A stretch of DNA of 64,000 bases from assembly GCF_051903065.1 (NCBI RefSeq), contig NZ_CP178438.1. One strand, written 5' to 3'. Shown here one piece after another: positions 575 to 54,306 of this stretch. This DNA is from Escherichia coli. GTDB lineage: Bacteria; Pseudomonadota; Gammaproteobacteria; Enterobacterales; Enterobacteriaceae. Below the pieces are notes generated by a model. The model was not told the DNA's origin and ran no database searches. It worked only from the letters and a program-made list of their open reading frames with translations. Positions within the stretch are counted from its first letter, which is position 1, and every line of letters starts with the position of its first letter. The position numbers and the translations under genes are program-made.

Positions 575-1678
575 TTACGCCAGTTGACGAAGCATCCGAC
601 GCAGCGGCTCCGCGGCCCCCCACAGCAGCTGGTCGCCCACGGTAAAGGCTGACAGGAACTCTGGTCCCATATTCAGCTTACGCAGGCGGCCTACCGGCGT
701 GGTCAGCGTGCCGGTAACGGCAGCTGGGGTTAGCTCACGCATAGTGATTTCCCGATCGTTCGGAACGACTTTCGCCCACGGATTGTGCGCAGCCAGCAGT
801 TCTTCCACGGTCGGAATCGACACATCTTTTTTCAATTTAATAGTGAATGCCTGGCTGTGGCAGCGCAATGCCCCGACACGCACACATAAACCATCTACCG
901 GAATTACGGAAGATGTGTTGAGGATCTTGTTGGTTTCCGCCTGCCCTTTCCACTCTTCGCGGCTCTGACCGTTATCGAGCTGTTTGTCGATCCACGGAAT
1001 CAGGCTACCCGCCAGCGGCACGCCAAAGTTATCCACCGGCAGCTCACCGCTACGGGTTAAGGTTGTGACTTTGCGTTCGATATCGAGAATAGCAGAGGAC
1101 GGGGTCGCGAGTTCATCTGCTACATGGCCATACAGATGGCCCATCTGGGTTAATAACTCACGCATATGTCGCGCACCACCGCCGGAAGCGGCCTGGTAGG
1201 TTGCAACGGACACCCAATCAACAAGATCATTGGCGAATAAACCACCCAACGACATCAACATCAGGCTTACGGTACAGTTACCGCCAACAAAAGTCCTGAT
1301 GCCATTATTTAATCCGTCGGTAATGACGTCCTGATTGACGGGGTCAAGAATGATGATGGCGTCATCTTTCATGCGCAGAGACGATGCTGCGTCAATCCAG
1401 TAACCCTGCCATCCGCTTTCACGAAGCTTTGGATAGATTTCGTTGGTATAATCGCCGCCCTGACAGGTCACAATGATATCGAGGGCCTTTAGCGCCTCCA
1501 GATCAAAGGCATCCTGAAGTGTGCCAGTGGTTCCGCCAAAAGACGGCGCAGCCTGACCAAGCTGAGAAGTAGAAAAGAAGACAGGGCGAATGGCGTCGAA
1601 GTCGCGCTCTTCAACCATGCGTTGCATGAGAACGGAGCCGACCATACCGCGCCAGCCGATAAAACCAACATTTTTCAT
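575..1678 (-). CDS. asd: aspartate-semialdehyde dehydrogenase
   Basis: ORF 575..1738; the product from internal Met ([21 protein letters not shown]...) is 367 aa, matching Asd length and N-terminus; upstream extension in track rejected. Confidence 0.93.
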
Positions 1679-1869
1679 AAGCGTTTTTTCCTGCAAAGAT
1701 GTGTGCTGTATAAATGTGCCGGTCTCCTCTTGGCACATCTTTCACCATACAAAAAGCAGCCAAAGTCGCAAGTGAAATTAATCAATGATAGCGAAGCCAT
1801 CAGTAATGCGACTTATCCTGCTTTGTTAGCACGCAGAAAGTCCGCGGCAATTATCAGGGAATTTGAGTT

Positions 1870-2463
1870 ATGAATGAAATCATTTCTGCAGCAGTTTTAT
1901 TGATCCTGATTATGGATCCGCTCGGAAACCTACCTATTTTCATGTCCGTACTGAAACATACTGAACCGAAAAGACGGCGGGCAATCATGGTGCGAGAGTT
2001 GCTTATTGCTCTCCTGGTGATGCTGGTGTTCCTGTTTGCGGGTGAGAAAATTCTGGCATTTCTCAGCCTGCGAGCAGAAACCGTCTCCATTTCTGGCGGC
2101 ATCATTCTGTTTCTAATTGCCATTAAGATGATTTTCCCCAGCGCTTCAGGAAATAGCAGCGGGCTTCCGGCAGGTGAAGAGCCATTTATCGTGCCGCTGG
2201 CAATTCCGCTGGTCGCCGGGCCAACTATTCTCGCCACGCTGATGTTGTTGTCTCATCAGTACCCGAATCAGATGGGACATCTGGTGATTGCTCTGCTGCT
2301 GGCCTGGGGCGGCACCTTTGTCATCCTGCTACAGTCTTCGCTATTTTTACGTCTGCTGGGCGAGAAAGGGGTGAACGCACTTGAACGCCTGATGGGATTG
2401 ATTCTGGTGATGATGGCAACCCAGATGTTCCTCGACGGCATTCGAATGTGGATGAAGGGGTAA
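1870..2463 (+). CDS. yhgN: MarC-family inner membrane protein YhgN
   Basis: 197-aa hydrophobic ORF MNEIISAAVLLILIMDPLGNLPIF...; position right after asd as in E. coli. Confidence 0.9.
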   Translation: MNEIISAAVLLILIMDPLGNLPIFMSVLKHTEPKRRRAIMVRELLIALLVMLVFLFAGEKILAFLSLRAETVSISGGIILFLIAIKMIFPSASGNSSGLPAGEEPFIVPLAIPLVAGPTILATLMLLSHQYPNQMGHLVIALLLAWGGTFVILLQSSLFLRLLGEKGVNALERLMGLILVMMATQMFLDGIRMWMKG

Positions 2464-2468
2464 GGTTC

Positions 2469-2507
2469 AAACAGGTGCTGCACACAACCAGACGCGGCAC
2501 CTGTTTT
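2469..2507 (+). terminator. putative stem-loop terminator between convergent yhgN and DprA-like gene
   Basis: aaacaggtgc (2469-2478) pairs with gcacctgttt (2497-2506), followed by T-run; loop is long (18 nt), so strength uncertain. Confidence 0.4.
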
Positions 2508-2508
2508 A

Positions 2509-3711
2509 TTACCTGAACTGATAATGACCTTCGCCCAATCGGATAACCCTTCCCTCTTCTTCTGCGCGGTTCAGCCACACACTAATTTGTTCGATGGTTA
2601 AACCAGTACAAGACGCCAGCCTTTCAATACTTATCGATTCCTTTGCAAGGATCGCCAGTTCCGCCACAAAGAGTTGATAAAAATCGACAGGCGTATACGC
2701 GGGCATTACTGCGTAATTTGCGTCATCTTCATGCAGCGAAAACAGTTCTGGTTGAGCGTTACGGAGTGCTCTGTCATACATCAGCCCAGGAACGTCTGGC
2801 AGTCTGATCGTCACATTCTCAGCCTGTTCAGCACTCCATGACGCCCCATTTTCTACTAATCGTGAATTGGCTGATTGCATATCCTGATTTGGTTTAACCT
2901 GCACAGGCAGCCACTGATGTTTTAATGCCTCCATCGCCCCGGTTATCGTTCCACCGGTCATTCCCGCACGTACAACCATTGCGCTTTCAGCAAGGCAATA
3001 AATATATTTATTTCGCGCCATCGCATTGCCGACGGTGAAACGTACCTCTGGGTAAAACGGCGAAATCAACACCAGGTTGCCTGCTATAAGCCCTTCACGC
3101 CATTTCACTAACGTACTCGTTTTTAACAAGCTATCAGCTAATACGCCAACGGCAGTTCCCCCGGCCTCCAGTGCCGACGCCATTGCACATTCATCAATAC
3201 CTCGCGCACCACCAGAGATAACGCAAATCCCCTGTTGGGCCAGTTTCGCGGCCAGTTGTTGGGTATAGCGCAAATCGTCAGTCGGAGCATCTCGCGAGCC
3301 AACAATCGCCATACCTTCCGCTTGCAGTAATGCTTTATTCCCGCAGCCAAATAAAACGGGAGGTGCATCCGTTCGCAATCGGTTTTTCAAGCGAACGGGA
3401 TAATCAGCATCTCCGCGGGTTAAGATCCATAAACCGGCGCGTTGCCACTTATCTACCGCCAACGCCAGACTATGACCACGCGCCAGCAAGCCAAGAATAC
3501 GCTCCTGAGAAATACGCGGATCGCTCCAGCCTGTAAGTTTCTCTTGCGGTTGCGGCACCAGAAGCTCGGCGGGACTGATACGTTGGTGCTTCAGCCATAA
3601 TGCAAACTTCCCCCATTCACTATTACTAAGAGGTTTATACTCACTCGCCGCCGCGCGAGAAAAATCGCTGGTTAGCAGGAGAGTTGCTTGTGCATTGGCT
3701 GAAAGATTCAT
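2509..3711 (-). CDS. DprA/Smf-like (SLOG Rossmann-fold) DNA-processing protein paralog
   Basis: ORF 2509..3804; DprA signature ...AIVGSRDAPTDDL...VISGGARGIDECAMASALEAGGTAVGVLADSL...MARNKYIYCLAESAMVVRAG; start assigned to Met32 (3709-3711), which overlaps the upstream helicase stop in a TGATG arrangement; the alternative start at 3804 would overlap the helicase by 94 nt. Confidence 0.75.
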   Translation of the reverse strand: MNLSANAQATLLLTSDFSRAAASEYKPLSNSEWGKFALWLKHQRISPAELLVPQPQEKLTGWSDPRISQERILGLLARGHSLALAVDKWQRAGLWILTRGDADYPVRLKNRLRTDAPPVLFGCGNKALLQAEGMAIVGSRDAPTDDLRYTQQLAAKLAQQGICVISGGARGIDECAMASALEAGGTAVGVLADSLLKTSTLVKWREGLIAGNLVLISPFYPEVRFTVGNAMARNKYIYCLAESAMVVRAGMTGGTITGAMEALKHQWLPVQVKPNQDMQSANSRLVENGASWSAEQAENVTIRLPDVPGLMYDRALRNAQPELFSLHEDDANYAVMPAYTPVDFYQLFVAELAILAKESISIERLASCTGLTIEQISVWLNRAEEEGRVIRLGEGHYQFR

Positions 3712-5807
3712 CAATTTTTTACCGAGGTAGAAGCAAGGGCAAGAGGATAAACCGTCGGGCAACCTGCCTGGCGTAACAGTGCTGTCAGAACTGTCAGCGT
3801 CCATGCAGAATCCACGATATCGTCAACCAGCAACGCCGGACCAGGCATCAAAGGAGGGGTAATCACAAACGCCCCGTCGAGATTTTGACACTGGTGGAAA
3901 CGGTTTTGCTGCATTTTCTGCGGTGGATTGTCCACGACTTTTTCAATGGCATCAATAAAAGGTAAGCCAAGTTTCGCCGCCAGTCGCCGGGCAAAATCAG
4001 AAACCAGGTCGAGGTGCTTTAATGAAGGAACGCAGCATACCCAGGTTGGTTCAGGATGCGGATTCCAGCGTTGGCGAACCATTTCCGCACATGCCTCCAC
4101 CAGTTCATCACTGAATCGTCCCGTTTTTTTCTCCTGTGCTACCTGCTTTCCCCACCCGGAATCTCCCCAACGAGAAAGGATTCGCCCCGTAGATCCTTGT
4201 AAACTCGCAGGCAAGTTCCCTTTAAATCCGTATTGCGTAAAAGCCCCAGCTGCCACCTGTTTATTGAGATTTAATGGCAGGTCAGCGTGTTTAATAAATA
4301 AGTTTGCCGCATGGAGTAAGCCGCTATCAATGTCGGGCGACAACAACGGACGCTGAAGACAACTGCTACATTTACCACAACGTTCGGCACCTGGCTCATC
4401 GAGTGCGCGGCGCAGAAATTGCATTTTGCACTCCTTGGTCGTGATATAGCTTTCAACGTCTGCCAGCTCACTTTTTCTCTGATTCATCAAATGGTTAATT
4501 CGTTCATGGTCAGGAGAAAAACTGACAATTGTTCTGCGCCATAATTTCTCGGTATACACCACAGGCGATGGATTTTCAGCTACCAATAATTTCAGTGCTT
4601 TTTCTATTTGCCCATAACGGAGATTCGTCCGTTGTTCAATGCCTCGTAAGGTAAGACCGTCATTCACGCTAAGTACGTTGAGTATTTCATGAATTTGTGC
4701 CTCCGCAGGAAAGGCGCTTTCACGGAAGAATTTATGAATAGCACGGTCTTCACTGCCGCAAAGCAGTATGCCAACAGCAGAATCGATACCGCGACCGGCA
4801 CGCCCCACCTGTTGGTAGTAACCAACTATCGAACCTGGCATCTGGTAATGAATAACAAACCCCAAATCCGGTTTGTCAAAGCCCATTCCCAGCGCCGTTG
4901 TCGCAACCAGCACTTTAATTTTATTTGCCAGCAACGCCTGCTCCAGATATTCCCTGGCAGTATTAGAATCTTCCGCGCCTTCACAAGTCACGCCGCTGTA
5001 GTAAGCAAATGCACTGATACCATTTTTCCTTAACCACTCGGCGACAAGTTCGGCATCGCGAGTAGTCAGGGTATAAACAATTCCCGATTTGGAAAACTGA
5101 GGGATAACCGTTGCTAACCATGCCAGACGGGATGACTGTTCACCTAAGACTAAGGCATCAAGCGCCAAACTTTCGCGAGCCAGCGTTCCACGCTGAATCA
5201 CAATGTCACCCAATTGCTGACGGATATCCTCAACGACACGGTTATTCGCTGTCGCGGTTGTACCCAGAACAGGGGTATTCGCAGGTAGTTGGCGCAAAAT
5301 ATCTAATATACGTCGGTAATCCGGGCGAAAATCGTGGCCCCAATCAGAGATGCAGTGCGCCTCGTCGACCACAAGCAAGCCAATACGATCGGCTATAGGA
5401 TATAAAACCGTTTCGATAAAGTCCTGGTTTGCCAAACGTTCCGGGGAAACCAGCAAGCAATCGACCTCACCTTGCAGCAACTTATCGCTAATGCGCTGCC
5501 ATTCTTCTCTGTTTGTAGAATTCAACGTTTCAGCCGTAATACCTAACCGTTCAGCGGCGGCAACCTGGTTACGCATCAGGGCAAGCAAAGGAGAGATGAT
5601 AATTGTCGGGCCAGCGCCGCGATCGCGGAAGATTTTACTGGCGATGAAGTACACAGCACTTTTCCCCCAGCCAGTGCGTTGGACAACCAGCAGTTTTCGC
5701 CGTTGGTTCACCACCGCGTCTATGGCTTCCCATTGCCCTTCCCTGAAAGTAGCGGTGGTATTTCCTAACATCCGCTGTAAAAGCAATTCAGCTGCGTGCT
5801 TTTCCAT
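3711..5807 (-). CDS. RecQ-family SF2 DNA helicase with C-terminal ComF/GntX-like phosphoribosyltransferase-fold domain
   Basis: 698 aa; Walker A QRTGWGKS, DEAH box VVDEAHCISDWGHDFRPDY, TATA motif, QQVGRAGRG arginine finger, Cys4 zinc site C460/C477/C480/C483 (17-3-3 spacing as in RecQ); C-terminal ...GAFVITPP...PALLVDDIVDSAWTL... resembles the PRTase-type nucleotide-binding loop of ComF-family proteins; strong SD (aggag) upstream of ATG at 5805-5807. Confidence 0.8.
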   Translation of the reverse strand: MEKHAAELLLQRMLGNTTATFREGQWEAIDAVVNQRRKLLVVQRTGWGKSAVYFIASKIFRDRGAGPTIIISPLLALMRNQVAAAERLGITAETLNSTNREEWQRISDKLLQGEVDCLLVSPERLANQDFIETVLYPIADRIGLLVVDEAHCISDWGHDFRPDYRRILDILRQLPANTPVLGTTATANNRVVEDIRQQLGDIVIQRGTLARESLALDALVLGEQSSRLAWLATVIPQFSKSGIVYTLTTRDAELVAEWLRKNGISAFAYYSGVTCEGAEDSNTAREYLEQALLANKIKVLVATTALGMGFDKPDLGFVIHYQMPGSIVGYYQQVGRAGRGIDSAVGILLCGSEDRAIHKFFRESAFPAEAQIHEILNVLSVNDGLTLRGIEQRTNLRYGQIEKALKLLVAENPSPVVYTEKLWRRTIVSFSPDHERINHLMNQRKSELADVESYITTKECKMQFLRRALDEPGAERCGKCSSCLQRPLLSPDIDSGLLHAANLFIKHADLPLNLNKQVAAGAFTQYGFKGNLPASLQGSTGRILSRWGDSGWGKQVAQEKKTGRFSDELVEACAEMVRQRWNPHPEPTWVCCVPSLKHLDLVSDFARRLAAKLGLPFIDAIEKVVDNPPQKMQQNRFHQCQNLDGAFVITPPLMPGPALLVDDIVDSAWTLTVLTALLRQAGCPTVYPLALASTSVKN

Positions 5808-5907
5808 CTTTATCTCCTGCGATCTTTAGGCAGTGATTAGAACGGATTATTTGCAGGTAAATTTGCGAGAGAGATCAAAAAGATGAAGAGAGGAGAAAAG
5901 AGAAATG

Positions 5908-5935
5908 AATTACTGCGAGCAAGCTCGCAGTAATT
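5908..5935 (-). terminator. rho-independent terminator downstream of gntU
   Basis: Perfect inverted repeat aattactgcgagc-aa-gctcgcagtaatt; on the minus strand it is followed by a T-rich tract (catttctcttttctcc...). Confidence 0.6.
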
Positions 5936-5946
5936 TGTCGCAGTAA

Positions 5947-7287
5947 TTAACTCAACAGCTGGAACGCAATCATCCCAACGATGGCACCAACAGTGCCGAG
6001 GATGGTTTCCATCATGGTCCAGGTTTTCAGCGTTTCGGCTTCGGTCGCGCCGGTAAATTTACCGAACAACCAGAAACCGGCGTCGTTAACGTGGCTGACA
6101 ACAATCGAACCACCGGCGATACAAATCGACAGCGCCGCCATTTGCGCACCGGAGTAGTTCAGTTGTTCAATGACCGGCATCACCAGCCCCACCGCCGTTA
6201 AACAGGCAACGGTGGCAGACCCCTGAATGATGCGCACTGCAGCTGCCAGCACGAAGCAGGTGATAGCAATCGGCAGGCCCATGCCGGTTAACGCTTCGCC
6301 CAGTGCCGGACCTACGCCAGAGTCAACCAGCACCTGTTTGAACACGCCGCCCGCACCAATCACCAGCAGAATGATCCCCGCCGGTTGCAGCGCGTGACCG
6401 CAAATCTCCATCACTTTGTCTTTTGGCATGCCCTGACGCATTGCCAGGCCATAAATCGCTACCAGACAAGCAACCAGAATCGCGGTAAACGGATGACCAA
6501 TAAACTCGAACCATTCGTAAGCAGTAGAGCCTTCCGGCACAAAACGCGCGGCAATGGTTTTCAGCCCCACCAGCACCAGCGGCAGCAGGATCAGCGACAG
6601 GCTGAATCCGAAGGACGGCATTTTGCCTTCGCCGAGATGCGGCTCGCTGATGTCGTCAGGAATATGCAGCTCAACGTAACGGCTGATGAAGTTACCCCAC
6701 AGCGGCCCGGCAATAATCATTCCCGGAATTGCCGCACACAGGCCAATCAGGATCATCCAGCCAAAATCGGCGTTCATCTGCGATGCCAGCAGCATTGGCG
6801 CTGGCCCTGGCACCAGGAACGCCGCCGCTGCCGCCACGCCTGCGAATAATGGGATTACCAGCTTCACCAGGTTCGTACCGGTGTGGCGCGCCATTGAGAA
6901 AGCAACGCTAATCAGCAGAACAATCGCCACTTCAAAGAACAGCGGTAGCGCACAGACCAGCCCCGCAAGGCCGATGGCATAATGCGCGCGGCTGTGACCG
7001 AAGGATTTAAGCATTTTGACGGCAATCTGATCGACTGCGCCGGTTTCATGTAAGATCTTGCCAAACATAGCTCCCAGGGCGACAACCACCGCCAGGAAGC
7101 CGAGGGTGCCTCCCATCCCTTTTTCCATCGTCGCTGCGATTTTATCGAGCGGCATACCGGAAAAAAGGCCAGCCCCCATGGACACCACCATTAAAGCCAG
7201 GAAAGCGTGCATACGCGCCTTCATGACTAAAAACAGCAGCAGTAAAACAGACCCTACTGCTGTTAAAACAAGCGTTAATGTAGTCAC
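5947..7287 (-). CDS. gntU: low-affinity gluconate transporter (GntP family)
   Basis: 446-aa polytopic membrane protein MTTLTLVLTAVGSVLLLLFLVMKARMHAF...; conserved position upstream of gntK/gntR. Confidence 0.9.
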   Translation of the reverse strand: MTTLTLVLTAVGSVLLLLFLVMKARMHAFLALMVVSMGAGLFSGMPLDKIAATMEKGMGGTLGFLAVVVALGAMFGKILHETGAVDQIAVKMLKSFGHSRAHYAIGLAGLVCALPLFFEVAIVLLISVAFSMARHTGTNLVKLVIPLFAGVAAAAAFLVPGPAPMLLASQMNADFGWMILIGLCAAIPGMIIAGPLWGNFISRYVELHIPDDISEPHLGEGKMPSFGFSLSLILLPLVLVGLKTIAARFVPEGSTAYEWFEFIGHPFTAILVACLVAIYGLAMRQGMPKDKVMEICGHALQPAGIILLVIGAGGVFKQVLVDSGVGPALGEALTGMGLPIAITCFVLAAAVRIIQGSATVACLTAVGLVMPVIEQLNYSGAQMAALSICIAGGSIVVSHVNDAGFWLFGKFTGATEAETLKTWTMMETILGTVGAIVGMIAFQLLS

Positions 7288-11147: not shown

Positions 11148-11242
11148 AAAAAAAAAGCCAGCACCCGGCTGGCTAAGTAATACTGGAAGCAATGTGAGCA
11201 ATGTCGTGCTTTCAGGTTCTCCGCGAGGGTCTTCCTGATCGC
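11148..11242 (-). ncRNA. ryhB: RyhB small RNA (Fur-repressed iron-sparing sRNA)
   Basis: Minus-strand sequence GCGATCAGGAAGACCCTCGCGGAGAACCTGAAAGCACGACATTGCTCACATTGCTTCCAGTATTACTTAGCCAGCCGGGTGCTGGC followed by a T-run, recognised from memory as RyhB; lies between yhhX and yhhY as expected. Confidence 0.85.
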
Positions 11243-43314: not shown

Positions 43315-44382
43315 GTGCCCAACATGTACGAACAGGATTCTCTTAGCGCACTGGATGCGATTACCGAAGCTCAACGCATTGCCTTTGCCCCTATGCTTTT
43401 TCAAACAGCACTCTGCCTACGTAATGCGGGTGTACTTTCATATCTGGATCGGCAAGGCAAACATGGCGCAACGCTGGCTGATATCACCGAACATAGCCAT
43501 ATCAACGAATATGCTGCCAGCGTTCTGTTAGATATGGGCTTAAGCGGGCGAATTATTACCTGTAAAGAGGGAATTTATTACCTGGCGAAAATCGGTCATT
43601 ACCTCCTGCATGACACTATGACTCGCGTGAATATGGATTTCACCCAGGATGTCTGTTACCAGGGGCTCTTCTTCCTCGCCGATTCACTCAATGAAGGAAA
43701 ACCTTCCGGGTTAAAAGTATTTGGCGACTGGTCGACGATATATCCGGCACTTTCGCAATTACCAGACGCCGCTCGTGAAAGCTGGTTTGCGTTTGATCAT
43801 TACTATTCAGATGGCGCATTTAACGCCGCACTGCCTTATGTATTCGCCAACAACCCCACAACATTGTACGATGTAGGCGGCAATACGGGTAAGTGGGCTT
43901 TGCGTTGCTGCAAATACAATGAAAACATCGCCGTGACGTTATTAGATCTGCCACAACAAATCGTACTAGCGAAAGAAAATATCGCGAATGCAGGTTTTTC
44001 TGATCGCATAGATTTCCATGCGGTGGATATGCTAAGCGATGCCCCATTACCGGGCGAGGCTGATATCTGGTGGATGAGCCAATTTTTAGACTGTTTTTCA
44101 CCCGAACAAATAATTAGCATACTCAGCAAAATTGCCAGCGTAATGAAGCCTGGCGCAAAAGTTTGCATCATGGAGTTGTTCTGGGATGCGCAGCGGTTTG
44201 AAGCAGCATCGTTTAGCCTGAACGCGTCCTCACTTTATTTTACCTGCATGGCAAACGGTAACAGCCGTTTCTATAGTGCAGAGAAATTTTACGACTATCT
44301 GAATAAAGCAGGATTCCAGGTAGCAGAGCGCCACGATAATTTAGGCGTTGGGCATACACTTTTGATATGCCAAAAGAAATAA
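43315..44382 (+). CDS. class I SAM-dependent (O-)methyltransferase
   Basis: 355 aa; SAM-binding motif LYDVGGNTGKWAL; GTG start at 43315, alternative ATG at 43324. Confidence 0.8.
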   Translation: MPNMYEQDSLSALDAITEAQRIAFAPMLFQTALCLRNAGVLSYLDRQGKHGATLADITEHSHINEYAASVLLDMGLSGRIITCKEGIYYLAKIGHYLLHDTMTRVNMDFTQDVCYQGLFFLADSLNEGKPSGLKVFGDWSTIYPALSQLPDAARESWFAFDHYYSDGAFNAALPYVFANNPTTLYDVGGNTGKWALRCCKYNENIAVTLLDLPQQIVLAKENIANAGFSDRIDFHAVDMLSDAPLPGEADIWWMSQFLDCFSPEQIISILSKIASVMKPGAKVCIMELFWDAQRFEAASFSLNASSLYFTCMANGNSRFYSAEKFYDYLNKAGFQVAERHDNLGVGHTLLICQKK

Positions 44383-44422
44383 TCGTCACTTAATAATTTT
44401 GGTTTACCGCGGGCGCGCGTTG

Positions 44423-45145
44423 ATGAAATTTACATTAAATATTACCGACTGGCAGGCACTGGCGCCTGGACTTAGCGAAGCGCAGCAATGGCAAGCATGG
44501 TCGCGCCAGCCGTGGGCGATTGACCCTGCCGCGCCGTTGGCAAAATTAAGTGAACTGCCAATGATGACCGCCCGCCGCCTCAGTTCAGGCAGCAAACTGG
44601 CTGTTGAATGCGGTCTGGCAATGCTACGCCGCCATCAGCCAGACGCCGTTTTGTATACCAGTCGTCATGGCGAACTGGAGCGCAATTACCGCATTGTTCA
44701 TGCACTGGCAACCGAACAGGCGCTTTCTCCGACCGACTTCGCGCTCTCCGTACACAACTCTTCCGTGGGTAACCTGACCATTGCGGCCAAACAGCCGATC
44801 GTTTCGTCATCGCTTTCGGCTGGTCGCGACACTTTCCAGCAAGGTTTGTGTGAAGTGCTTAGCCTGTTACAAGCGGGATACCAGCGCGTGCTGATGGTCG
44901 ATTTTGACGGTTTCCTGCCCGAGTTTTATCACCCACAACTGCCATCAGAAATGCCGACCTGGCCGTACGCCGTCGCGCTGGTGATTGAAGCTGGCGATGA
45001 GTGGCAATGTGAAACGCAGTCAGCCATTGCGGGCAATGAAACAACACTGCCGCAAAGCATGTTGTTTTTACAGCACTATTTACAAAATGTAGACACATTT
45101 TCACTGCCTGGCGAGCGCGTGCAATGGCGCTGGAGCCACAGATGA
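44423..45145 (+). CDS. ketosynthase-like protein lacking the active-site Cys (chain-length-factor-like KS partner)
   Basis: ORF 44399..45145 (TTG in track); ATG at 44423 gives MKFTLNITDWQALAPG...; about 240 aa, thiolase-like N-terminal half without a C-x-S-S catalytic motif. Confidence 0.7.
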   Translation: MKFTLNITDWQALAPGLSEAQQWQAWSRQPWAIDPAAPLAKLSELPMMTARRLSSGSKLAVECGLAMLRRHQPDAVLYTSRHGELERNYRIVHALATEQALSPTDFALSVHNSSVGNLTIAAKQPIVSSSLSAGRDTFQQGLCEVLSLLQAGYQRVLMVDFDGFLPEFYHPQLPSEMPTWPYAVALVIEAGDEWQCETQSAIAGNETTLPQSMLFLQHYLQNVDTFSLPGERVQWRWSHR

Positions 45146-45963
45146 GTAAGCTGATGTCACGTCTGGAGTGGACCTGGCGACTGGTCATGACCGGGTTATG
45201 TTTTGCCCTGTTTGGTCTCGGCGGCCTGCTGCTTTCTGTCGTGTGGTTTAACATATTGTTAGTTTTGGTGTGGGATACTTCCCGCCGCCGTCGTTTGGCG
45301 CGTCGCAGCATTGCCGCCAGTTTTCGCCTGTTTTTAACTGTCGCGAAAGGGCTTGGCGTGCTGGATTATCGTATTGATGGCGCTGAAATTTTACGTCAGG
45401 AACGCGGTTGCCTCGTCGTAGCCAATCATCCCACGCTGATCGATTACGTGCTGCTGGCGTCAGTCATGCCAGAAACTGACTGCCTGGTGAAAAGCGCACT
45501 GTTAAAAAATCCTTTTCTTGGCGGCGTCGTGCGGGCGGCAGATTATTTAATCAACAGCGAAGCTGAAACCCTGTTACCCCGCTGCCAACAGCGACTGGCA
45601 CAGGGTGACACTATCCTGATTTTCCCCGAAGGCACACGAACGAAGCCCGGTGAAAAAATGACGCTGCAGCGCGGGGCGGCGAATATTGCCGTGCGCTGCG
45701 CCAGCGATTTACGCATCGTGACAATCGGCTGTAGCGAGCATCTGCTGGATAAACAAAGTAAATGGTATGACGTTCCACCTGACCGGCCGTTTTTTACGGT
45801 TGCAGTCCATGGTCGGGTTGAAATCAATAAATTTTACGATGCAACTTCACAAGAACCGGCGCTGGCAGCAAGGCAGTTAAACCGGCATCTTTTGCTTCAA
45901 TTACAACAAGGTTGTTTACCTCTCTCAGGAATAAATAATGCAAGCGCTTTATCTGGAAATTAA
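45142..45963 (+). CDS. PlsC-type (lysophospholipid) acyltransferase
   Basis: ORF 45124..45963; start at ATG 45142 forms an ATGA overlap with the upstream stop; motifs NHPTLIDYVLL (H-x4-D) and IFPEGTRT. Confidence 0.8.
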   Translation: MSKLMSRLEWTWRLVMTGLCFALFGLGGLLLSVVWFNILLVLVWDTSRRRRLARRSIAASFRLFLTVAKGLGVLDYRIDGAEILRQERGCLVVANHPTLIDYVLLASVMPETDCLVKSALLKNPFLGGVVRAADYLINSEAETLLPRCQQRLAQGDTILIFPEGTRTKPGEKMTLQRGAANIAVRCASDLRIVTIGCSEHLLDKQSKWYDVPPDRPFFTVAVHGRVEINKFYDATSQEPALAARQLNRHLLLQLQQGCLPLSGINNASALSGN

Positions 45964-46195
45964 AAACCTCATCATCAGCACCCTCAATCTGGACGAGTTG
46001 ACGCCTGATGATATCGATACCGACGCGCCGCTGTTTGGCGACGGTTTAGGGCTGGACTCTATCGATGCCCTGGAACTGGGACTGGCAGTAAAAAATGAGT
46101 ACGGCATCGTGCTCTCTGCGGAAAGCGAAGAGATGCGTCAGCACTTTTTCTCCGTCGCCACTCTGGCCTCTTTCATTGCTGCGCAACGTGCCTGA
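45938..46195 (+). CDS. acyl carrier protein 1
   Basis: 85 aa; phosphopantetheine-attachment motif GLGLDSIDALELG; SD agga 7 nt upstream. Confidence 0.88.
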   Translation: MQALYLEIKNLIISTLNLDELTPDDIDTDAPLFGDGLGLDSIDALELGLAVKNEYGIVLSAESEEMRQHFFSVATLASFIAAQRA

Positions 46196-46206
46196 GGAAA
46201 GCCATC

Positions 46207-46458
46207 ATGACAGAACAACAAACCGTCTATCAGGAAGTCTCAGCCCTGCTGGTTAAGCTGTTTGAAATCGATCCGCAGGACATCAAACCTGAAGCGCGCC
46301 TGTACGAAGATCTGGAACTGGACAGCATCGACGCCGTTGACATGATTGTGCACCTGCAAAAGAAAACCGGTAAGAAAATCAAGCCGGAAGAGTTTAAAGC
46401 AGTGCGTACAGTCCAGGATGTCGTCGAGGCTGTAGAACGCCTGCTACAAGAAGCCTGA
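46207..46458 (+). CDS. acyl carrier protein 2
   Basis: 83 aa; motif DLELDSIDAVDMI; SD gagga upstream. Confidence 0.88.
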   Translation: MTEQQTVYQEVSALLVKLFEIDPQDIKPEARLYEDLELDSIDAVDMIVHLQKKTGKKIKPEEFKAVRTVQDVVEAVERLLQEA

Positions 46459-46462
46459 TCTG

Positions 46463-47044
46463 ATGTCGGGCATTCGCTCGCTACCGATGATTAAGCTGCT
46501 GACTGGATTATTGCTGCTCGCCTGGCCGTTTGTGATTTGGTTTGGCTTAGCGCATAACGGCCTGCACTGGCTGTTACCGCTAATGGCGTTGCTGCTTTTG
46601 TTGCGTCTGCGCCAGACCCGTCGCCAGGCGGGGCCTTTACAAGCCGTCACGCAACTCGTCGCTGTCGTGGGCATCGCATTATGTGTCGCCAGCTTTATGT
46701 TGAAAACGCACCAGCTACTGCTGTTTTACCCGGTAGTGGTTAACGCGGTCATGCTGGCGGTTTTTGGCGGTTCGCTGTGGTCGGCAATGCCGATAGTTGA
46801 GCGGCTGGCGCGGTTGCAGGAGCCAGACCTCCCGGAAAAGGGCGTGCGCTATACCCGCCACGTCACGCAAATCTGGTGCGGCTTTTTCATCATTAACGGT
46901 GGAATTGCCCTCTTTACCGCGCTTTATGCCGATATGTCGTTATGGACCGCCTGGAACGGCATGATTGCTTATTTGTTGATGGGGACGTTAATGGCTGGTG
47001 AATGGCTGGTGCGCCGCCAGGTTATGAAAAGAGATCGCGCATGA
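46463..47044 (+). CDS. hypothetical integral membrane protein
   Basis: 193 aa, about 4-5 hydrophobic helices (LLTGLLLLAWPFVIWFGLAH...). Confidence 0.7.
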   Translation: MSGIRSLPMIKLLTGLLLLAWPFVIWFGLAHNGLHWLLPLMALLLLLRLRQTRRQAGPLQAVTQLVAVVGIALCVASFMLKTHQLLLFYPVVVNAVMLAVFGGSLWSAMPIVERLARLQEPDLPEKGVRYTRHVTQIWCGFFIINGGIALFTALYADMSLWTAWNGMIAYLLMGTLMAGEWLVRRQVMKRDRA

Positions 47045-48402
47045 AGCAGACCTTACCGCTTGCACGCTGGCTGACTGCGCCACGCCCTGATGACACACCC
47101 ATTGCGTGGCTGAACGAAAGTACCTGGACGCTGGGCGATTTGCGTCACGATGTCGCGCAACTTATCTGCCGCTTGCAGCAACAGCCGGGTGAACGCTGGG
47201 CGCTGTGCTTTGAGAACAGCTATCTGTTTATCGTTGCCCTGCTCGCCACGCTACACGCCGGAAAAACGCCGGTGCTTCCGGGGCATAACCGTGTTATCCA
47301 GCTTAACGAGCAACGTGAACTTTTTGATGGTGTGCTTAGCGACAGCGAACTTAACTGGCAAGGTTCATTGCTGTTGGTAGCAAGTTCCCCACAAGTCGCG
47401 ACACAATCCTTCACCTTTGCCGCTATAGCGCCAGAGGCTTATATCGAGCTGTTTACCTCCGGTTCCACGGGACAGCCGAAACGGGTGATTAAACCTGTTC
47501 ATTTGCTGGACCGTGAAGCAGAACTGCTGGCTGAACGATTAGGCGCACGTCTGGCGGATTGTCGTGTCATCGGTTCCGTATTGCCGCAGCATTTGTACGG
47601 CCTGACTTTTCGCGTTTTCCTGCCCATGGCGCTGGGATTACCCCTACATGCCGCCATGCTCTGGTATGTCGAACAGTTTGCCGCGTTGAGTCATCAGCAT
47701 CGCTATATCTTCATCAGCAGCCCGGCATTTTTGAAGCGTCTGGATACACAGCTTTCCCCACCGCCCGTTCAGGTGCTTCTCTCTGCTGGCGGTGAGCTAC
47801 CGTGGCAGGATGTACAACACACCGCGAGCTGGCTGCGCGTCTGGCCTGATGAAATCTACGGCAGCACGGAAACCGGCGTCATCGCCTGGCGCTACCGCGA
47901 ACAAGAGCAACGCCGCTGGCTACCCCTCCCAGGTATGCAGTTCCAGGCCGAAGGCGATGCCTTTCGCCTCTTTTCACCGCTGATAGCGGAAGATAACGGC
48001 CTGTTACTCGACGATATCTTACAGTTTAGCGAAGATGGTCAGTTCCATCTGATGGGGCGTCGTGGGCGCATCGTTAAGATTGAAGAAAAACGTATTTCAC
48101 TCCAGGAAGTAGAACAACGTCTACTGGCGCTGGACGGCATTCGCGAGGCGGCGGCAGTTCCCGTTACGCGCGGCGGGCGTCAGAGCATAGGCGTTTTGCT
48201 GGTGCTGGATGACGAAGCTCATCTGCAATGGCAGAACGGCGGCGGGCATAGCCAGGAAATGACCTGGCGGCGTTTACTGCGCCCGACGCTGGAGCCAGTT
48301 GCTATTCCGCGTTACTGGCGCGTTATTGATGAAATGCCAGTAAACAGTATGAACAAGCGTGTCTATGCGCAATTACAGGAGTTATTTCATGAAGCCCCAT
48401 GA
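47041..48402 (+). CDS. adenylate-forming enzyme (AMP-dependent synthetase/ligase; probable starter-acid:ACP ligase)
   Basis: ORF 47002..48402; start at ATG 47041 (ATGA overlap with upstream stop); AMP-binding motifs FTSGSTGQPKRV and YGSTETG. Confidence 0.82.
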   Translation: MKQTLPLARWLTAPRPDDTPIAWLNESTWTLGDLRHDVAQLICRLQQQPGERWALCFENSYLFIVALLATLHAGKTPVLPGHNRVIQLNEQRELFDGVLSDSELNWQGSLLLVASSPQVATQSFTFAAIAPEAYIELFTSGSTGQPKRVIKPVHLLDREAELLAERLGARLADCRVIGSVLPQHLYGLTFRVFLPMALGLPLHAAMLWYVEQFAALSHQHRYIFISSPAFLKRLDTQLSPPPVQVLLSAGGELPWQDVQHTASWLRVWPDEIYGSTETGVIAWRYREQEQRRWLPLPGMQFQAEGDAFRLFSPLIAEDNGLLLDDILQFSEDGQFHLMGRRGRIVKIEEKRISLQEVEQRLLALDGIREAAAVPVTRGGRQSIGVLLVLDDEAHLQWQNGGGHSQEMTWRRLLRPTLEPVAIPRYWRVIDEMPVNSMNKRVYAQLQELFHEAP

Positions 48403-48742
48403 AATCGAGCGCCATCAGGCACAAACGAATCACCTTGAAATTGTTCTGCATCTCAGGGCGGATCTGTTCTGGTTTCGCGGTCATTTTGCCGTGCAACCAT
48501 TACTCCCAGGAGTTGCGCAAATCGATTGGGCGATGAGCTACGCGCTCAATCTGCTCGCGCCTGGCTGGCGTTTTCACTCCATTCAGAACATAAAATTCCA
48601 GTCTCCGTTGCTGCCGGAAAACCGCGTCACGCTCGCGCTTAACTGGCAGGAAGAACGCCAGATTCTGAGCTTTAGCTATCAGCGTCACGACGGTGACGCC
48701 CGCCACACCGCCAGTAGCGGGAAGATACGCCTATGTCGGTAA
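48389..48742 (+). CDS. FabZ/FabA-like hotdog-fold 3-hydroxyacyl-ACP dehydratase
   Basis: ORF 48359..48742; start ATG 48389 with SD aggag 8 nt upstream; motif FRGHFAVQPLLPGVAQIDWAM resembles FabZ GHFP..P..PGVL..EA.AQ. Confidence 0.78.
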   Translation: MKPHEIERHQAQTNHLEIVLHLRADLFWFRGHFAVQPLLPGVAQIDWAMSYALNLLAPGWRFHSIQNIKFQSPLLPENRVTLALNWQEERQILSFSYQRHDGDARHTASSGKIRLCR

Positions 48743-50409
48743 ACTTTTCTCCCTGCGTGTTGATCCCCTGCTACAACCACGGCGCGATGATGCCGGGCGT
48801 GCTGGCGCGTCTTAAGCCATTTAATCTGCCCTGTATTGTGGTGGACGACGGCAGCGATGCCGCCACGCAACAGCAACTGGACAGTCTGCTTGCCGAACAG
48901 CCTGGCGTGACCTTAATCCGCCTGGCAGAAAACGCAGGCAAAGGCGCGGCAGTGATGCGTGGCTTACAGGCAGCGGCAGACGCAGGGTTCAGCCATGCGG
49001 TGCAGGTGGATGCTGACGGTCAACATGCGATTGAAGATATCCCCAAACTGCTGGCACTCGCTGAACAACACCCTGCGGCGCTGATCTCCGGCCAGCCAAT
49101 TTACGATGACTCCATCCCCCGCTCACGGCTTTACGGGCGCTGGGTCACCCACGTCTGGGTATGGATCGAAACGCTCTCCCTGCAACTGAAAGACAGCATG
49201 TGCGGCTTTCGCGTTTATCCGGTTGCGCCAACGCTGCAACTGGCAAAACACGCCACCATCGGCAAGCGGATGGATTTCGACACTGAAGTGATGGTGCGCC
49301 TCTACTGGCAGGGAAACACCAGCTATTTCGTGCCGACCCGCGTCACCTATCCACTGGACGGGCTTTCGCATTTTGATGCCCTGAAAGATAACGTCCGCAT
49401 CTCGCTCATGCACACGCGTCTGTTTTTCGGCATGTTGCCGCGTATTCCTTCACTACTGATGCGCCGCTCTTCCAGCCACTGGGCGCGGCAGAGTGAAGTG
49501 AAAGGATTATGGGGAATGCGCCTGATGCTGCTGGTCTGGCGTCTGCTGGGAAGAACGGCGTTTAGCGCGCTGCTTTACCCGGTGGTGGGCGTCTACTGGC
49601 TCACTGCTGCTCGTGCGCGCAAAGCGTCGCAAGACTGGCTCGCCCGTGTACGACAGCATCAACCACAGGCGGCAAAACTCAACAGCTATCAGCACTTTCT
49701 ACGTTTCGGTAATGCCATGCTCGACAAAATCGCCAGCTGGCGCGGCGAGCTACAACTGGGGCACGATGTGCTGTTTGCGCCAGGCGCAGAAGCGGCGCTT
49801 GACGTCAGCGATCCGCGCGGCAAATTGCTGCTGGCCTCGCATCTTGGCGATGTGGAAGTGTGCCGGGCGCTGGCAAAAATTCAGGGCTACAAAACCATTA
49901 ACGCGCTGGTGTTTAGCGAAAACGCCCAACGCTTTAAACAGATAATGCAGGAGATGGCTCCTCAGGCAGGTATTAACCTGATGCCGGTAACAGATATCGG
50001 CCCGGAAACCGCCATCCTGCTGAAAGAGAAGCTGGATAACGGCGAATGGGTGGCGATTGTCGGTGACCGCATCGCCGTCACCCCGCAACGCGGCGGCGAC
50101 TGGCGCGTCTGCTGGAGTCCGTTTATGGGCCAGCCTGCGCCCTTCCCACAGGGGCCGTTTATTCTCGCGTCTATTTTGCGCTGCCCGGTGAATCTGATTT
50201 TCGCCCTGCGCCAGCGCGGCAAGCTGCATATTCACTGCGAAACCTTTGCCGACCCGCTGCTGTTGCCGCGTGGCGAACGCCAACAGGCGCTGCAAAACGC
50301 TATCGACCACTACGCCGCGCGTCTGGAACATTACGCGCTCCAGTCGCCCCTCGACTGGTTTAATTTTTTCGATTTCTGGCAACTGCCGGAAATTCAGGAC
50401 AAGGAGTAA
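48733..50409 (+). CDS. two-domain protein: N-terminal GT2-family glycosyltransferase plus C-terminal domain of uncertain (possibly acyltransferase-like) function
   Basis: 558 aa; GT-A motifs VLIPCYNHG, VVDDGSDA, QVDADGQH in the first about 250 aa; C-terminal half not confidently assigned by eye. Confidence 0.75.
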   Translation: MSVNFSPCVLIPCYNHGAMMPGVLARLKPFNLPCIVVDDGSDAATQQQLDSLLAEQPGVTLIRLAENAGKGAAVMRGLQAAADAGFSHAVQVDADGQHAIEDIPKLLALAEQHPAALISGQPIYDDSIPRSRLYGRWVTHVWVWIETLSLQLKDSMCGFRVYPVAPTLQLAKHATIGKRMDFDTEVMVRLYWQGNTSYFVPTRVTYPLDGLSHFDALKDNVRISLMHTRLFFGMLPRIPSLLMRRSSSHWARQSEVKGLWGMRLMLLVWRLLGRTAFSALLYPVVGVYWLTAARARKASQDWLARVRQHQPQAAKLNSYQHFLRFGNAMLDKIASWRGELQLGHDVLFAPGAEAALDVSDPRGKLLLASHLGDVEVCRALAKIQGYKTINALVFSENAQRFKQIMQEMAPQAGINLMPVTDIGPETAILLKEKLDNGEWVAIVGDRIAVTPQRGGDWRVCWSPFMGQPAPFPQGPFILASILRCPVNLIFALRQRGKLHIHCETFADPLLLPRGERQQALQNAIDHYAARLEHYALQSPLDWFNFFDFWQLPEIQDKE

Positions 50410-50412
50410 AGG

Positions 50413-50835
50413 GTGCTTAACGATCCCCGATTTACCGCTGAAGTCGAGCTGACCATTCCCTTTCACGACGTCGATATGATGGGCGTGGCCTGGCACGGTA
50501 ACTATTTTCGCTACTTTGAAGTGGCCCGCGAGGCGCTGCTCAACCAGTTCAATTACGGCTATCGGCAGATGAAAGAGTCCGGTTATTTGTGGCCAGTGGT
50601 CGATGCGCGGGTGAAATATCGCCACGCTCTCACCTTTGAGCAACGCATCCGCGTGCGTGCGCATATCGAAGAGTTCGAAAACCGTCTGCGGATTGGCTAT
50701 CAGATTTTCGATGCCGAAACGGGCAAACGCGCCACCACCGGATACACCATTCAGGTCGCGGTCGACGAGCAAAGCCGCGAACTGTGCTTTGTCAGCCCCG
50801 ATATTCTGTTTGAACGCATGGGAGTCAAACCATGA
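50413..50835 (+). CDS. hotdog-fold acyl-(ACP/CoA) thioesterase (4HBT-like)
   Basis: 140 aa; GTG start 50413 with SD aaggag 6 nt upstream; MLNDPRFTAEVELTIPFHDVDMMGVAWHGNYFRYFE... typical 4HBT/YbgC-like N-terminus. Confidence 0.75.
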   Translation: MLNDPRFTAEVELTIPFHDVDMMGVAWHGNYFRYFEVAREALLNQFNYGYRQMKESGYLWPVVDARVKYRHALTFEQRIRVRAHIEEFENRLRIGYQIFDAETGKRATTGYTIQVAVDEQSRELCFVSPDILFERMGVKP

Positions 50836-51437
50836 AATTTTTACCGCTGCTGGCGCTGCTGATTAGCCCGTTTGTGAGCGCCCTGACCCTGGACGATCTT
50901 CAACAACGTTTTACCGAACAGCCGGTGATCCGCGCCCATTTCGATCAAACCCGGACGATTAAAGATCTGCCGCAGCCGCTGCGATCTCAGGGCCAGATGT
51001 TGATCGCCCGCGACCAGGGGTTATTGTGGGATCAAACCTCACCGTTCCCCATGCAACTATTACTGGACGATAAACGCATGGTGCAGGTGATCAACGGTCA
51101 GCCGCCGCAAATCATCACGGCAGAAAATAACCCGCAGATGTTCCAGTTTAACCACCTGCTGCGCGCGCTGTTCCAGGCCGATCGCAAAGTGCTGGAACAA
51201 AACTTCCGCGTCGAATTTGCCGACAAAGGCGAAGGCCGCTGGACGCTGCGCCTGATGCCGACCACCACGCCACTGGATAAAATTTTCAACACCATCGATC
51301 TCGCCGGGCAAACCTATCTGGAGAGCATTCAGCTTAATGATAAACAGGGCGATCGCACCGATATTGCTCTTACCCAACATCAACTGACACCAGCGCAACT
51401 GACCGATGACGAACGCCAACGTTTTGCCGCCCAGTAA
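50832..51437 (+). CDS. LolA-like outer-membrane lipoprotein carrier family protein
   Basis: 201 aa with signal peptide MKFLPLLALLISPFVSA; ATGA overlap with upstream gene. Confidence 0.72.
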   Translation: MKFLPLLALLISPFVSALTLDDLQQRFTEQPVIRAHFDQTRTIKDLPQPLRSQGQMLIARDQGLLWDQTSPFPMQLLLDDKRMVQVINGQPPQIITAENNPQMFQFNHLLRALFQADRKVLEQNFRVEFADKGEGRWTLRLMPTTTPLDKIFNTIDLAGQTYLESIQLNDKQGDRTDIALTQHQLTPAQLTDDERQRFAAQ

Positions 51438-53724
51438 ACGCCCCGCGCTGTTATGGGGGCTAGTCTGCCTGGTCATGGCGGCGGCGTTGCTGATCCTGCT
51501 GCCGCAATCACGGCTGAACAGTAGCGTGCTGGCTATGTTACCCAAACAGGCGATGGGCGATATTCCCCCAGCGCTGAATGACGGCTTTATGCAGCGTCTG
51601 GACCGCCAACTGGTGTGGCTGGTCAGCCCCGGTAAAGAGGCTAATCCCAGGGTCGCTCAGGAGTGGCTGACGCAGCTGCAAAAATCCGCTGCGCTTGGCG
51701 ACATTAAAGGGCCAATGGATGCCGCCAGCCAGCAGGCGTGGGGAGCGTTTTTCTGGCAGCACCGCAACGGCCTGATTGACCACGACACCCGCGCCCGCCT
51801 GCAAAACGGCGGCGAAGCGCAGGCGCAGTGGATCCTCTCCCAGCTTTATTCTGCATTCTCCGGGGTAAGCGGCAAGGAGCTGCAAAACGATCCGCTGATG
51901 TTAATGCGCGGCTCGCAGCTGGCGATGGCAAAAAATGGCCAGCGTTTGCGGCTGATGGACGGCTGGCTGGTGACGCAGGATCCCCAGGGCAACTACTGGT
52001 ATCTGCTGCACGGCGAACTGGCGGGATCGTCGTTTGATATGCAGCAAACCCACCAGCTCATCACGACCCTGAATACGCTGGAAAAGGATCTGAAAACGCG
52101 TTACCCACAGGCGCAGTTGCTCTCGCGCGGCACGGTATTTTACAGCGATTACGCCAGTCAACAGGCGAAGCAGGATATCTCAACCCTGGGCGTGGCAACG
52201 CTGCTGGGGGTGATATTGCTGATTGTGGCGGTGTTCCGCTCTTTGCGCCCGTTGCTGCTTTGCGTGATTTCCATCGGCATCGGCGCGCTGGCGGGAACGG
52301 TCGCCACTTTATTGATTTTCGGTGAATTACACCTGATGACGCTGGTGATGAGCATGAGCGTTATCGGCATTTCCGCTGACTACACGCTCTATTATCTCAC
52401 CGAGCGGATGGTTCACGGCAACGACGTTTCGCCGTGGCAAAGCCTGGCGAAAGTACGCAATGCCTTGCTACTGGCGCTGCTCACCACCGTGGCGGCGTAT
52501 CTGATTATGATGCTCGCCCCCTTCCCCGGCATTCGCCAGATGGCGATTTTTGCCGCCGTCGGGTTGAGCGCCTCCTGTCTGACCGTCCTGTTCTGGCATC
52601 CGTGGCTGTGCCGTGGCCTGCCGGTGCGTCCGGTTCCGGCGATGGCGCTGATGCTACGCTGGCTGGCAGCGTGGCGGCGTAATAAAAAACTGTCGCTGGG
52701 TCTGCCCGTCGCGCTGGCGCTGTTTTCGCTGGCGGGGATGTCAATGCTACGCGTCGATGACGATATCTCGCAGTTACAGGCGCTACCGCAGCATATTCTG
52801 GCGCAGGAAAAAGCCATTACCGCCCTGACCAGGCAGAGCGTCGATCAAAAATGGTTTGTGGTTTACGGCGATTCGCCACAGCAAACATTGCGGCGACTGG
52901 AGAAATATACCGCCTCACTTGAGTATGCGAAAAAAGAGGGGCTTATCAGCAACTACCGCACCATTCCGCTGAACTCCCTTGCGCGGCAGGAGGAAGATTT
53001 ACAACTGCTGAAAACGGCGGCCCCGACAGTAACAAAAGCGCTGCAAAATGCCGGGCTGACGGCAGTGAACCCGGATCTCAACGCCATGCCAGTGAACGTT
53101 GATGAATGGCTGGCAAGCCCCGCCAGTGAAGGCTGGCGTCTGCTGTGGCTGACGCTGGAAAACGGCGAAAGCGGCGTACTGGTGCCGGTTGAAGGGGTTA
53201 AAAGTAGCGCGTTGATGCAGGAAATCGCCAGCTATTACCCTTGCGGCATTGCCTGGGTTGATCGCAAAAGCACCTTTGATGAATTGTTCGCACTTTACCG
53301 TTATGTCTTAACCGGCTTGTTGCTGGTGGCGCTGGCGGTGATTGCCTGCGGCGCAGTGGCCCGTCTCGGCTGGCGCAAAGGGCTTATCAGCCTGGTGCCT
53401 TCGGTGCTTTCGCTGGGCTGCGGTCTGGCGGTGCTGGCGATGAGCGGGCAGGCGGTGAATATCTTTTCGCTTCTGGCGCTGGTGCTGGTGCTTGGCATCG
53501 GCATCAATTACACGCTGTTTTTCAGTAATCCGCGCGGCACACCGTTAACTTCGCTACTGGCGATCACACTGGCAATGCTCACCACCTTGCTGACGCTGGG
53601 AATGTTGGTATTCAGCGCCACCCAGGCCATCAGCAGTTTTGGCATTGTGCTGGTGAGCGGTATTTTCACCGCCTTCCTGCTTTCGCCGCTGGCTATGCCC
53701 GATAAAAAGAGAACAAAAAAATGA
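51406..53724 (+). CDS. MMPL/RND-superfamily exporter
   Basis: 772 aa, two clusters of TM helices separated by soluble loops; 32-nt overlap with upstream gene. Confidence 0.8.
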   Translation: MTNANVLPPSKRPALLWGLVCLVMAAALLILLPQSRLNSSVLAMLPKQAMGDIPPALNDGFMQRLDRQLVWLVSPGKEANPRVAQEWLTQLQKSAALGDIKGPMDAASQQAWGAFFWQHRNGLIDHDTRARLQNGGEAQAQWILSQLYSAFSGVSGKELQNDPLMLMRGSQLAMAKNGQRLRLMDGWLVTQDPQGNYWYLLHGELAGSSFDMQQTHQLITTLNTLEKDLKTRYPQAQLLSRGTVFYSDYASQQAKQDISTLGVATLLGVILLIVAVFRSLRPLLLCVISIGIGALAGTVATLLIFGELHLMTLVMSMSVIGISADYTLYYLTERMVHGNDVSPWQSLAKVRNALLLALLTTVAAYLIMMLAPFPGIRQMAIFAAVGLSASCLTVLFWHPWLCRGLPVRPVPAMALMLRWLAAWRRNKKLSLGLPVALALFSLAGMSMLRVDDDISQLQALPQHILAQEKAITALTRQSVDQKWFVVYGDSPQQTLRRLEKYTASLEYAKKEGLISNYRTIPLNSLARQEEDLQLLKTAAPTVTKALQNAGLTAVNPDLNAMPVNVDEWLASPASEGWRLLWLTLENGESGVLVPVEGVKSSALMQEIASYYPCGIAWVDRKSTFDELFALYRYVLTGLLLVALAVIACGAVARLGWRKGLISLVPSVLSLGCGLAVLAMSGQAVNIFSLLALVLVLGIGINYTLFFSNPRGTPLTSLLAITLAMLTTLLTLGMLVFSATQAISSFGIVLVSGIFTAFLLSPLAMPDKKRTKK

Positions 53725-54305: not shown

Positions 54306-54306
54306 T

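Follow-up and report, generated by a model that had tools for sequence, protein, structure and literature searches.

What is a phosphoribosyltransferase (PRTase)-like domain doing at the end of a RecQ-family helicase? This question is raised by a 698-residue protein encoded in a 64,000-nucleotide stretch of an Escherichia coli chromosome (NCBI RefSeq assembly GCF_051903065.1, contig NZ_CP178438.1; hereafter the window), the C-terminal part of which, at positions 3714–4085, was singled out in an initial annotation made without database searches. That annotation described a PRTase-like, ComF-related tail and proposed that it either gates the helicase in response to a ligand or recruits it to incoming single-stranded DNA (ssDNA). 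In our estimate, the probability is roughly 90% that the locus is the rqlH-rqlI (psyrT-psyrA) toxin–antitoxin/defense operon, with the flagged segment corresponding to the ComF-like PRTase-fold domain of its toxin, RqlH. The role of this tail is best accounted for if it is an effector and an antitoxin docking site, not a regulator of the motor. The two genes are the following.

3711–5807, minus strand: rqlH (psyrT), open reading frame for a 698-residue RecQ-like helicase with a C-terminal ComF-like PRTase domain (toxin)
2509–3711, minus strand: rqlI (psyrA), 400-residue DprA-like antitoxin (PADLOC PsyrA, Pfam and junction sequence)

The locus matches the rqlH-rqlI (psyrTA) operon

We identify the locus as rqlH-rqlI (psyrTA) because both products match the dedicated family models, because the larger one belongs to the RecQ family, and because it carries a DIVD motif at the same position as RqlH from E. 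coli F11. The 698-residue protein matches the PADLOC PsyrT model (PDLC03928) with E = 0 and 1063 bits, residues 3–697 aligning with model positions 5–687 of 689, and the 400-residue protein matches PsyrA with E = 1e-202 over residues 1–400 (model positions 1–397 of 398). The NCBIfam recQ_fam model gives 253.7 bits, above its cut-off of 219.8, which places the motor among RecQ-family superfamily 2 (SF2) helicases. The DIVD motif is found at residue 663, as in the numbering of F11 RqlH, with which the Walker A lysine K49 agrees too. RefSeq labels the product of 100%-identical DNA "RecQ family ATP-dependent DNA helicase" (WP_047624745.1).

Since a translationally coupled DprA-like gene lies immediately downstream, the locus is read as a toxin–antitoxin/defense pair. 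The initial annotation, which was right about the fold and its likeness to ComF, overlooked this second gene. The ATG of rqlI overlaps the rqlH stop codon by one base (TGATG), and its product contains a Pfam DNA_processg_A (DprA) domain at residues 89–292 (E = 4.7e-51). The PADLOC model for ShosA, the antitoxin of the ShosTA system, also matches RqlI, more weakly (E = 2.7e-27). In RefSeq, the DprA-like gene is given as a 431-residue version (2509–3804, minus strand) that overlaps the helicase gene by 94 nt. This start probably lies 31 codons too far upstream, since both the PsyrA model and the published RqlI (1–400) fit the ATG at 3711.

The RecQ–PRTase fusion at this locus was correctly observed, and it is already known. 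Ordonez, Unciuleac and Shuman (2012) described Mycobacterium smegmatis RqlH as a RecQ-like ATPase followed by a linker, a tetracysteine zinc module, and a ComF-like C-terminal domain with PRTase motifs, and they named the fusion and presented it as a distinctive architecture (PMC3378886). The E. coli F11 protein was dissected genetically by Russell and Mulvey in 2015 (PMC4670107), who note in their abstract that, in other bacteria, rqlH and rqlI do not always come as a pair. Iyer 2017 mentions an SF2 helicase–PRTase fusion coupled to DprA. Under the name PsyrTA (Sberro 2013; Millman 2022), the RqlHI pair was listed by Millman 2022 among anti-phage toxin–antitoxin systems and noted to share its DprA-like antitoxin and its PRTase toxin with ShosTA. 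As a discovery, the locus thus adds nothing: the fusion has had a name since 2012 and a genetic dissection in E. coli since 2015, and its listing as a defense system dates from 2022.

A RecQ-family motor and zinc module precede the tail

The protein divides into a motor core, a zinc module, and the C-terminal tail with its predicted ligand-binding loop, which binds phosphoribosyl pyrophosphate (PRPP) in PRTase-fold proteins.

4737–5807, minus strand: SF2 RecQ-type motor core, residues 1–357 (NCBIfam recQ_fam at residues 19–357; Pfam DEAD and Helicase_C)
4356–4481, minus strand: RecQ-type tetracysteine zinc module, residues 443–484 (Pfam RecQ_Zn_bind, E = 0.003; cysteine conservation)
3714–4295, minus strand: ComF-like PRTase-fold domain, residues ~505–698, with 3714–4085 as its core
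3795–3836, minus strand: predicted PRPP-binding loop, residues 658–671, ALLVDDIVDSAWTL (alignment and conservation)

Pfam recognizes DEAD at residues 23–194, Helicase_C at residues 239–339 and, weakly, RecQ_Zn_bind (E = 0.003). Conservation was scored on 30 full-length homologs with 34–53% identity, and the same set is used throughout. K49 is invariant among them, and in the DEAH box (residues 148–151) E149 and H151 are at least 90% conserved. The same holds for each of the four cysteines of the zinc module (C460, C477, C480, and C483), which have the spacing C-x16-C-x2-C-x2-C. No HRDC domain was found by Pfam.

Two other identities were considered for the whole protein and rejected. It is not the canonical RecQ equivalog, because TIGR01389 gives 296.6 bits, far below its cut-off of 640.2, and Pfam finds no HRDC domain. 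It is not ShosT either, since the N terminus of RqlH is a RecQ-like helicase and the ShosT model matches with E = 0.01 only.

The tail has a predicted PRTase-type fold, with ComF as its closest solved relative

The segment at 3714–4085 corresponds to the last 124 codons, residues 575–698. On the sequence of the tail alone, the PRTase assignment is not significant: Pfam Pribosyltran matches weakly (E = 0.0079, residues 605–683), and the best match in the Protein Data Bank (PDB) by phmmer is an APRT with E = 0.14. Because such single-sequence searches fell short, the assignment had to draw on a family-based profile and a modeled structure. Most close homologs of residues 501–698 carry a precomputed PF00156 match. 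A profile built from 55 sequences retrieved 36 PDB sequences at E values up to 1, all PRTase-fold proteins except one (an Obg-like ATPase); the best was PRPP synthetase (E = 1.9e-4), and the matches were centered on the PRPP loop. An AlphaFold2 model of residues 501–698, based on the family alignment, has a predicted local distance difference test (pLDDT) score of 88.5 and a predicted template modeling (pTM) score of 0.87. When this model was compared with the PDB using Foldseek, each of the 50 best matches had the PRTase fold. The closest solved structural relative is ComF, including the N-terminal strands, at a sequence identity of 12%.

These findings agree that the modeled tail has a PRTase-type fold, with the parallel-sheet core of type I phosphoribosyltransferases, and a chance similarity is rejected since family profile, Foldseek, and structure comparison converge on that fold. 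The two structural claims of the initial annotation, a PRTase-type fold fused to a RecQ helicase and a likeness to ComF, are thereby borne out. Its domain limits need revision. Although 3714–4085 does encode residues 575–698, the model and the comparison with ComFC show that strands at residues 509–512 and 541–544 are part of the ComF-like domain, which therefore starts at about residues 505–509 (window position ~4295), upstream of the flagged segment. In addition, the quoted peptide FIDAIEK begins at residue 617, not 575.

The two aspartates of VDDIVDS, the conservation of which the initial annotation proposed to check, are invariant in the family. Among the residues of the predicted PRPP loop, D662, D663, S667, and T670 never vary, and W669 is kept in at least 90% of the homologs. 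The loop has a hydrophobic strand, two acidic residues, and an (S/T)-x-x-T turn; it aligns with the loop of PRPP synthetase, and its counterpart in ComFC is 157-DDIITTGTTL-166. The other invariant residues of the tail are P594, A610, Q630, N642, L660, L678, and V686. Some of these fall in further candidate elements of a PRTase site. A candidate pyrophosphate loop follows the strand at 589–592 of the ligand-free model, where P594 is invariant and S595 is present in at least 90% of the homologs, and a candidate flexible loop spans residues ~624–646, where Q630 and N642 are invariant and the pLDDT of the model is only ~60.

In a library of representative sequences, 1622 cluster representatives match the tail at E values up to 1e-3, and 184 do so at E values up to 1e-30. 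With few exceptions among the 150 best of these, the match stops no more than a few residues from the protein C terminus; many of these 150 are fragments, and those that appear full length measure ~680–750 residues, a few being longer. None of the 25 best NCBIfam matches at E values up to 0.01 is a ComF family model, and the sole PRT-type model among them is ribose-phosphate diphosphokinase (E = 0.0047).

Two PADLOC models labeled "DpdF" (PDLC02869 and PDLC02866) match the PRTase tail only: a 74-position model covers residues 625–698 (E = 7.8e-54) and a 255-position model covers residues 462–694. They may have been built from RqlH-like fragments, in which case the DpdF label is misleading.

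An apparent stand-alone tail is a disrupted fusion

Database homologs of the tail often measure 237 or 267 residues, which could be taken as a sign that a ComF-like stand-alone version exists. We rejected this reading after inspection of one of them. The 237-residue protein P0072 is encoded on two metagenome contigs, of 99 and 66 kb, that are 98.8% identical: ERZ21830251 contig_93 (locus L003) and ERZ25069412 ctg846719 (locus L004). On both contigs, it is part of an rqlH homolog that is interrupted at one and the same point, immediately ahead of the zinc module (positions 4900–5020 of L003 and of L004), and that retains a DprA-like gene downstream. The breaks differ in kind: one is an in-frame TAG (CAG in the other contig) and the other is a 14-nt frameshifting insertion. 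The toxin may have been inactivated twice, independently, or the contigs may be misassembled here. Since P0072 proved to be a broken fused gene, the short homologs are not counted as evidence for a separate tail, and the other 237- and 267-residue "proteins," of which P0072 alone was checked, may be similar fragments.

The tail is best explained as an effector and antitoxin docking site

Published work on two orthologs bears directly on the function of the tail. In M. smegmatis RqlH, residues 1–505 are enough for DNA-dependent ATPase activity, 3′–5′ translocation, and unwinding, and the C-terminal 186 residues are dispensable (PMC3378886). When produced without RqlI, E. coli F11 RqlH causes growth inhibition, SOS induction, and filamentation (Russell and Mulvey 2015, PMC4670107). 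Growth inhibition and SOS induction are lost upon deletion of residues 509–690 or substitution in the DIVD motif (D663A or DIVD663EVME), and the helicase-dead K49A and D148A variants are still harmful (PMC4670107). Since toxicity is abolished by D663A and not by K49A, we read the tail as an effector rather than a sensor.

The same results bear on the ligand-gated helicase proposed initially, in which the tail would sense PRPP or a nucleotide and accordingly activate or silence the RecQ motor. Regulatory use of the PRT fold is known from PurR and PyrR, and ComFC binds PRPP as well as nucleoside mono- and diphosphates (NMPs and NDPs). Moreover, the 2015 authors took the behavior of K49A, D148A, and K49A/D663A to mean that the helicase domain contributes to restraining the PRTase domain, which suggests crosstalk. 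However, the ATPase, translocase, and helicase activities of M. smegmatis RqlH are unchanged without the tail, and in E. coli F11 that tail is the toxic determinant, with toxicity gone in D663A and kept in K49A. Gating of the motor is not borne out by these data, and we consider it very improbable.

The tail is also needed for binding of the antitoxin. RqlI neutralizes the toxicity of F11 RqlH and is pulled down with the full-length protein but not with RqlH 1–509 (PMC4670107). A second alternative explanation of the tail is modeled on ComFC, the crystal structure of which was determined with PRPP-Mg and which also binds NMPs, NDPs, and ssDNA and interacts with DprA (PMC9005727). By this account the tail, a putative ssDNA binder with a DprA-type partner, would act on incoming or exposed ssDNA, and toxicity would stem from mishandling of ssDNA rather than from chemistry. 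The need for the tail in binding the DprA-like RqlI fits such a role, as does the parallel between the set of ComFA helicase, ComFC, and DprA and the pair of RqlH and RqlI. The 2015 paper had already discussed the ties of ComF and DprA to DNA uptake and raised, as an idea, the recruitment to incoming ssDNA that the initial annotation also put forward (PMC4670107). What speaks against noncatalytic DNA handling is the need for an aspartate of the PRPP pocket in toxicity. Furthermore, the tail is devoid of the CxxC zinc finger of ComFC, the upstream zinc module being of the RecQ type, and a competence phenotype has not been reported. We regard this explanation as quite unlikely.

A third possibility takes ShosT as its model, a toxin crystallized with PRPP, the binding of which is required for its toxicity (PMC11961720 and PMC12961424). 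A ShosT-like tail would consume PRPP or make an aberrant nucleotide and thereby upset purine metabolism, with DNA damage as a secondary effect and a helicase part that serves regulation or stability only. The two antitoxins are homologous, as seen from the match of PsyrA to the ShosA model, and the weak match to the ShosT model spans the whole tail. What separates the systems is that RqlH has no equivalent of the pyrophosphatase domain of ShosT, that the PRTase domain of RqlH shows no toxicity by itself, that RqlI binds RqlH whereas ShosA neutralizes ShosT without binding it, and that ShosT is structurally more distant from the tail than ComF is. A metabolic toxin of this kind is unlikely.

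If the tail is an effector held by its antitoxin, it would bind PRPP or a nucleotide via the invariant D662-D663...S667-x-W669-T670 loop, by analogy with ComFC and ShosT. Since the isolated PRTase domain is insufficient for toxicity (PMC4670107), we infer that the RecQ-like part brings the tail onto DNA. There, a product of the tail, or a complex formed by it, would damage DNA or block replication. The DprA-like RqlI would clamp the PRTase domain silent until an event, presumably phage infection, frees the toxin. The invariance of the PRPP-loop residues across homologs of such modest identity is consistent with this scheme.

Several observations weigh against it. Helicase-dead RqlH is harmful in a manner partly independent of RqlI, so the division of labor between domains is not clean. 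E. coli RqlH has an alanine at position 668, where most homologs have a glycine. For RqlH, as for ComFC and ShosT, PRTase catalysis is putative, and so is any acceptor. Finally, PsyrTA of E. coli NILS69 gave no detectable protection against phages, whether probed by deletion in that strain or by expression in K-12, and its expression only slowed growth. The evidence for an anti-phage role thus comes from a homolog in another organism (Millman 2022).

A more specific proposal would derive the RqlH/RqlI interface from the ComFC–DprA contact, by exaptation, on the grounds that ComF is the best structural match of the tail and that ComFC and DprA have a published interaction. PsyrTA would then be a competence-type module for handling ssDNA, made of a helicase, a ComFC-like PRTase, and a DprA-like protein, that has become a sensor and effector for foreign or exposed ssDNA. 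With PRPP as the donor, the tail would phosphoribosylate DNA bases, or a nucleotide bound to DNA, on the strand that the RecQ motor exposes. Such a modification of DNA had been suggested in 2015 (PMC4670107). We think that this proposal, taken as a whole, is probably wrong.

The operon stands in place of a short spacer between yhgN and gntU

In the window, the two minus-strand genes lie between asd (575–1738, minus strand) and yhgN (1870–2463, plus strand) on one side and gntU, gntK, and gntR on the other. Two further features define their setting.

2464–5946, no strand: two-gene insert of 3.48 kb, from the yhgN stop codon to the gntU stop codon
5908–5935, minus strand: terminator-like hairpin with a 12-bp stem (terminator scan), downstream of gntU and just upstream of rqlH

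Strains without the insert have a 56-bp spacer at the yhgN–gntU site. Homology ends exactly at the yhgN stop codon and restarts at the gntU stop codon, and two junction sequences show that the insert stands in place of this spacer. A 3.55-kb stretch covering the locus was found, at a coverage of at least 80%, in 1641 of 5426 complete E. coli genomes (~30%), and it was chromosomal in every case. No direct repeats were seen by eye at the borders in the two junction sequences, and no mobility gene is present within 2464–5946. A scan for the sigma-70 consensus revealed no promoter-like site in 2380–6000.

Elsewhere in the window, the small RNA RyhB (Rfam RF00057, 83.1 bits) is encoded at 11149–11213 on the minus strand, the sole Rfam match at the gathering threshold. 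A cluster of ~15 kb on the plus strand (43315–57894), between a yhhT-like gene and nikA, encodes an FlxJ-family methyltransferase, an acyltransferase, an AMP-dependent ligase, a glycosyltransferase, a LolA-like protein, an RND/MMPL-type transporter, two beta-ketoacyl-ACP synthases, and FabG2. We take it to resemble an aryl-polyene/flexirubin-type cluster beside acpT, presumably absent from E. coli K-12.

The interest of the rqlH-rqlI locus to the field lies in the chemistry of the PRTase-fold domains of RqlH, ShosT, and ComFC. For such work, the window offers a clean native example, with an intact operon at a site where it is found in about 30% of complete E. coli genomes.

Comparison with known systems

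The nearest known system is the RqlH-RqlI pair of E. coli F11 (PMC4670107), which is from the same species and has the same two-gene architecture, a 400-residue RqlI, and the same numbering of K49, D148, and DIVD663. Judged by numbering, models, and architecture, nothing of substance distinguishes the two, the RefSeq antitoxin call being 31 codons longer here. M. smegmatis RqlH (PMC3378886) is a distant ortholog with the same order of ATPase, linker, zinc module, and ComF-like tail, no HRDC domain, and a length of ~690 residues.

Among proteins that share the fold of the tail, ComFC (Helicobacter pylori structure 7p0h, PMC9005727) has a canonical PRPP loop (DDIITTGTTL, as against DDIVDSAWTL in RqlH) and likewise a DprA protein as a partner. 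ComFC is a stand-alone, membrane-associated protein of ~190–250 residues with its own CxxC zinc finger and is needed for transformation, whereas the RqlH tail is fused to a RecQ-like motor, is toxic, and follows a zinc module with RecQ spacing. ShosT (8zvb and 8zvc; PMC11961720 and PMC12961424) resembles RqlH in being a PRTase-fold toxin with a DprA-like antitoxin, in the dependence of its toxicity on the PRPP pocket, and in causing filamentation and DNA damage. It differs in having an N-terminal pyrophosphatase domain where RqlH has a helicase, and in that ShosA does not bind ShosT. Finally, canonical E. coli RecQ has the same SF2 RecQ-type motor and a zinc module with equal cysteine spacing, to which RqlH adds a linker of ~90 residues before the zinc module and, in the place of HRDC, the PRTase tail.

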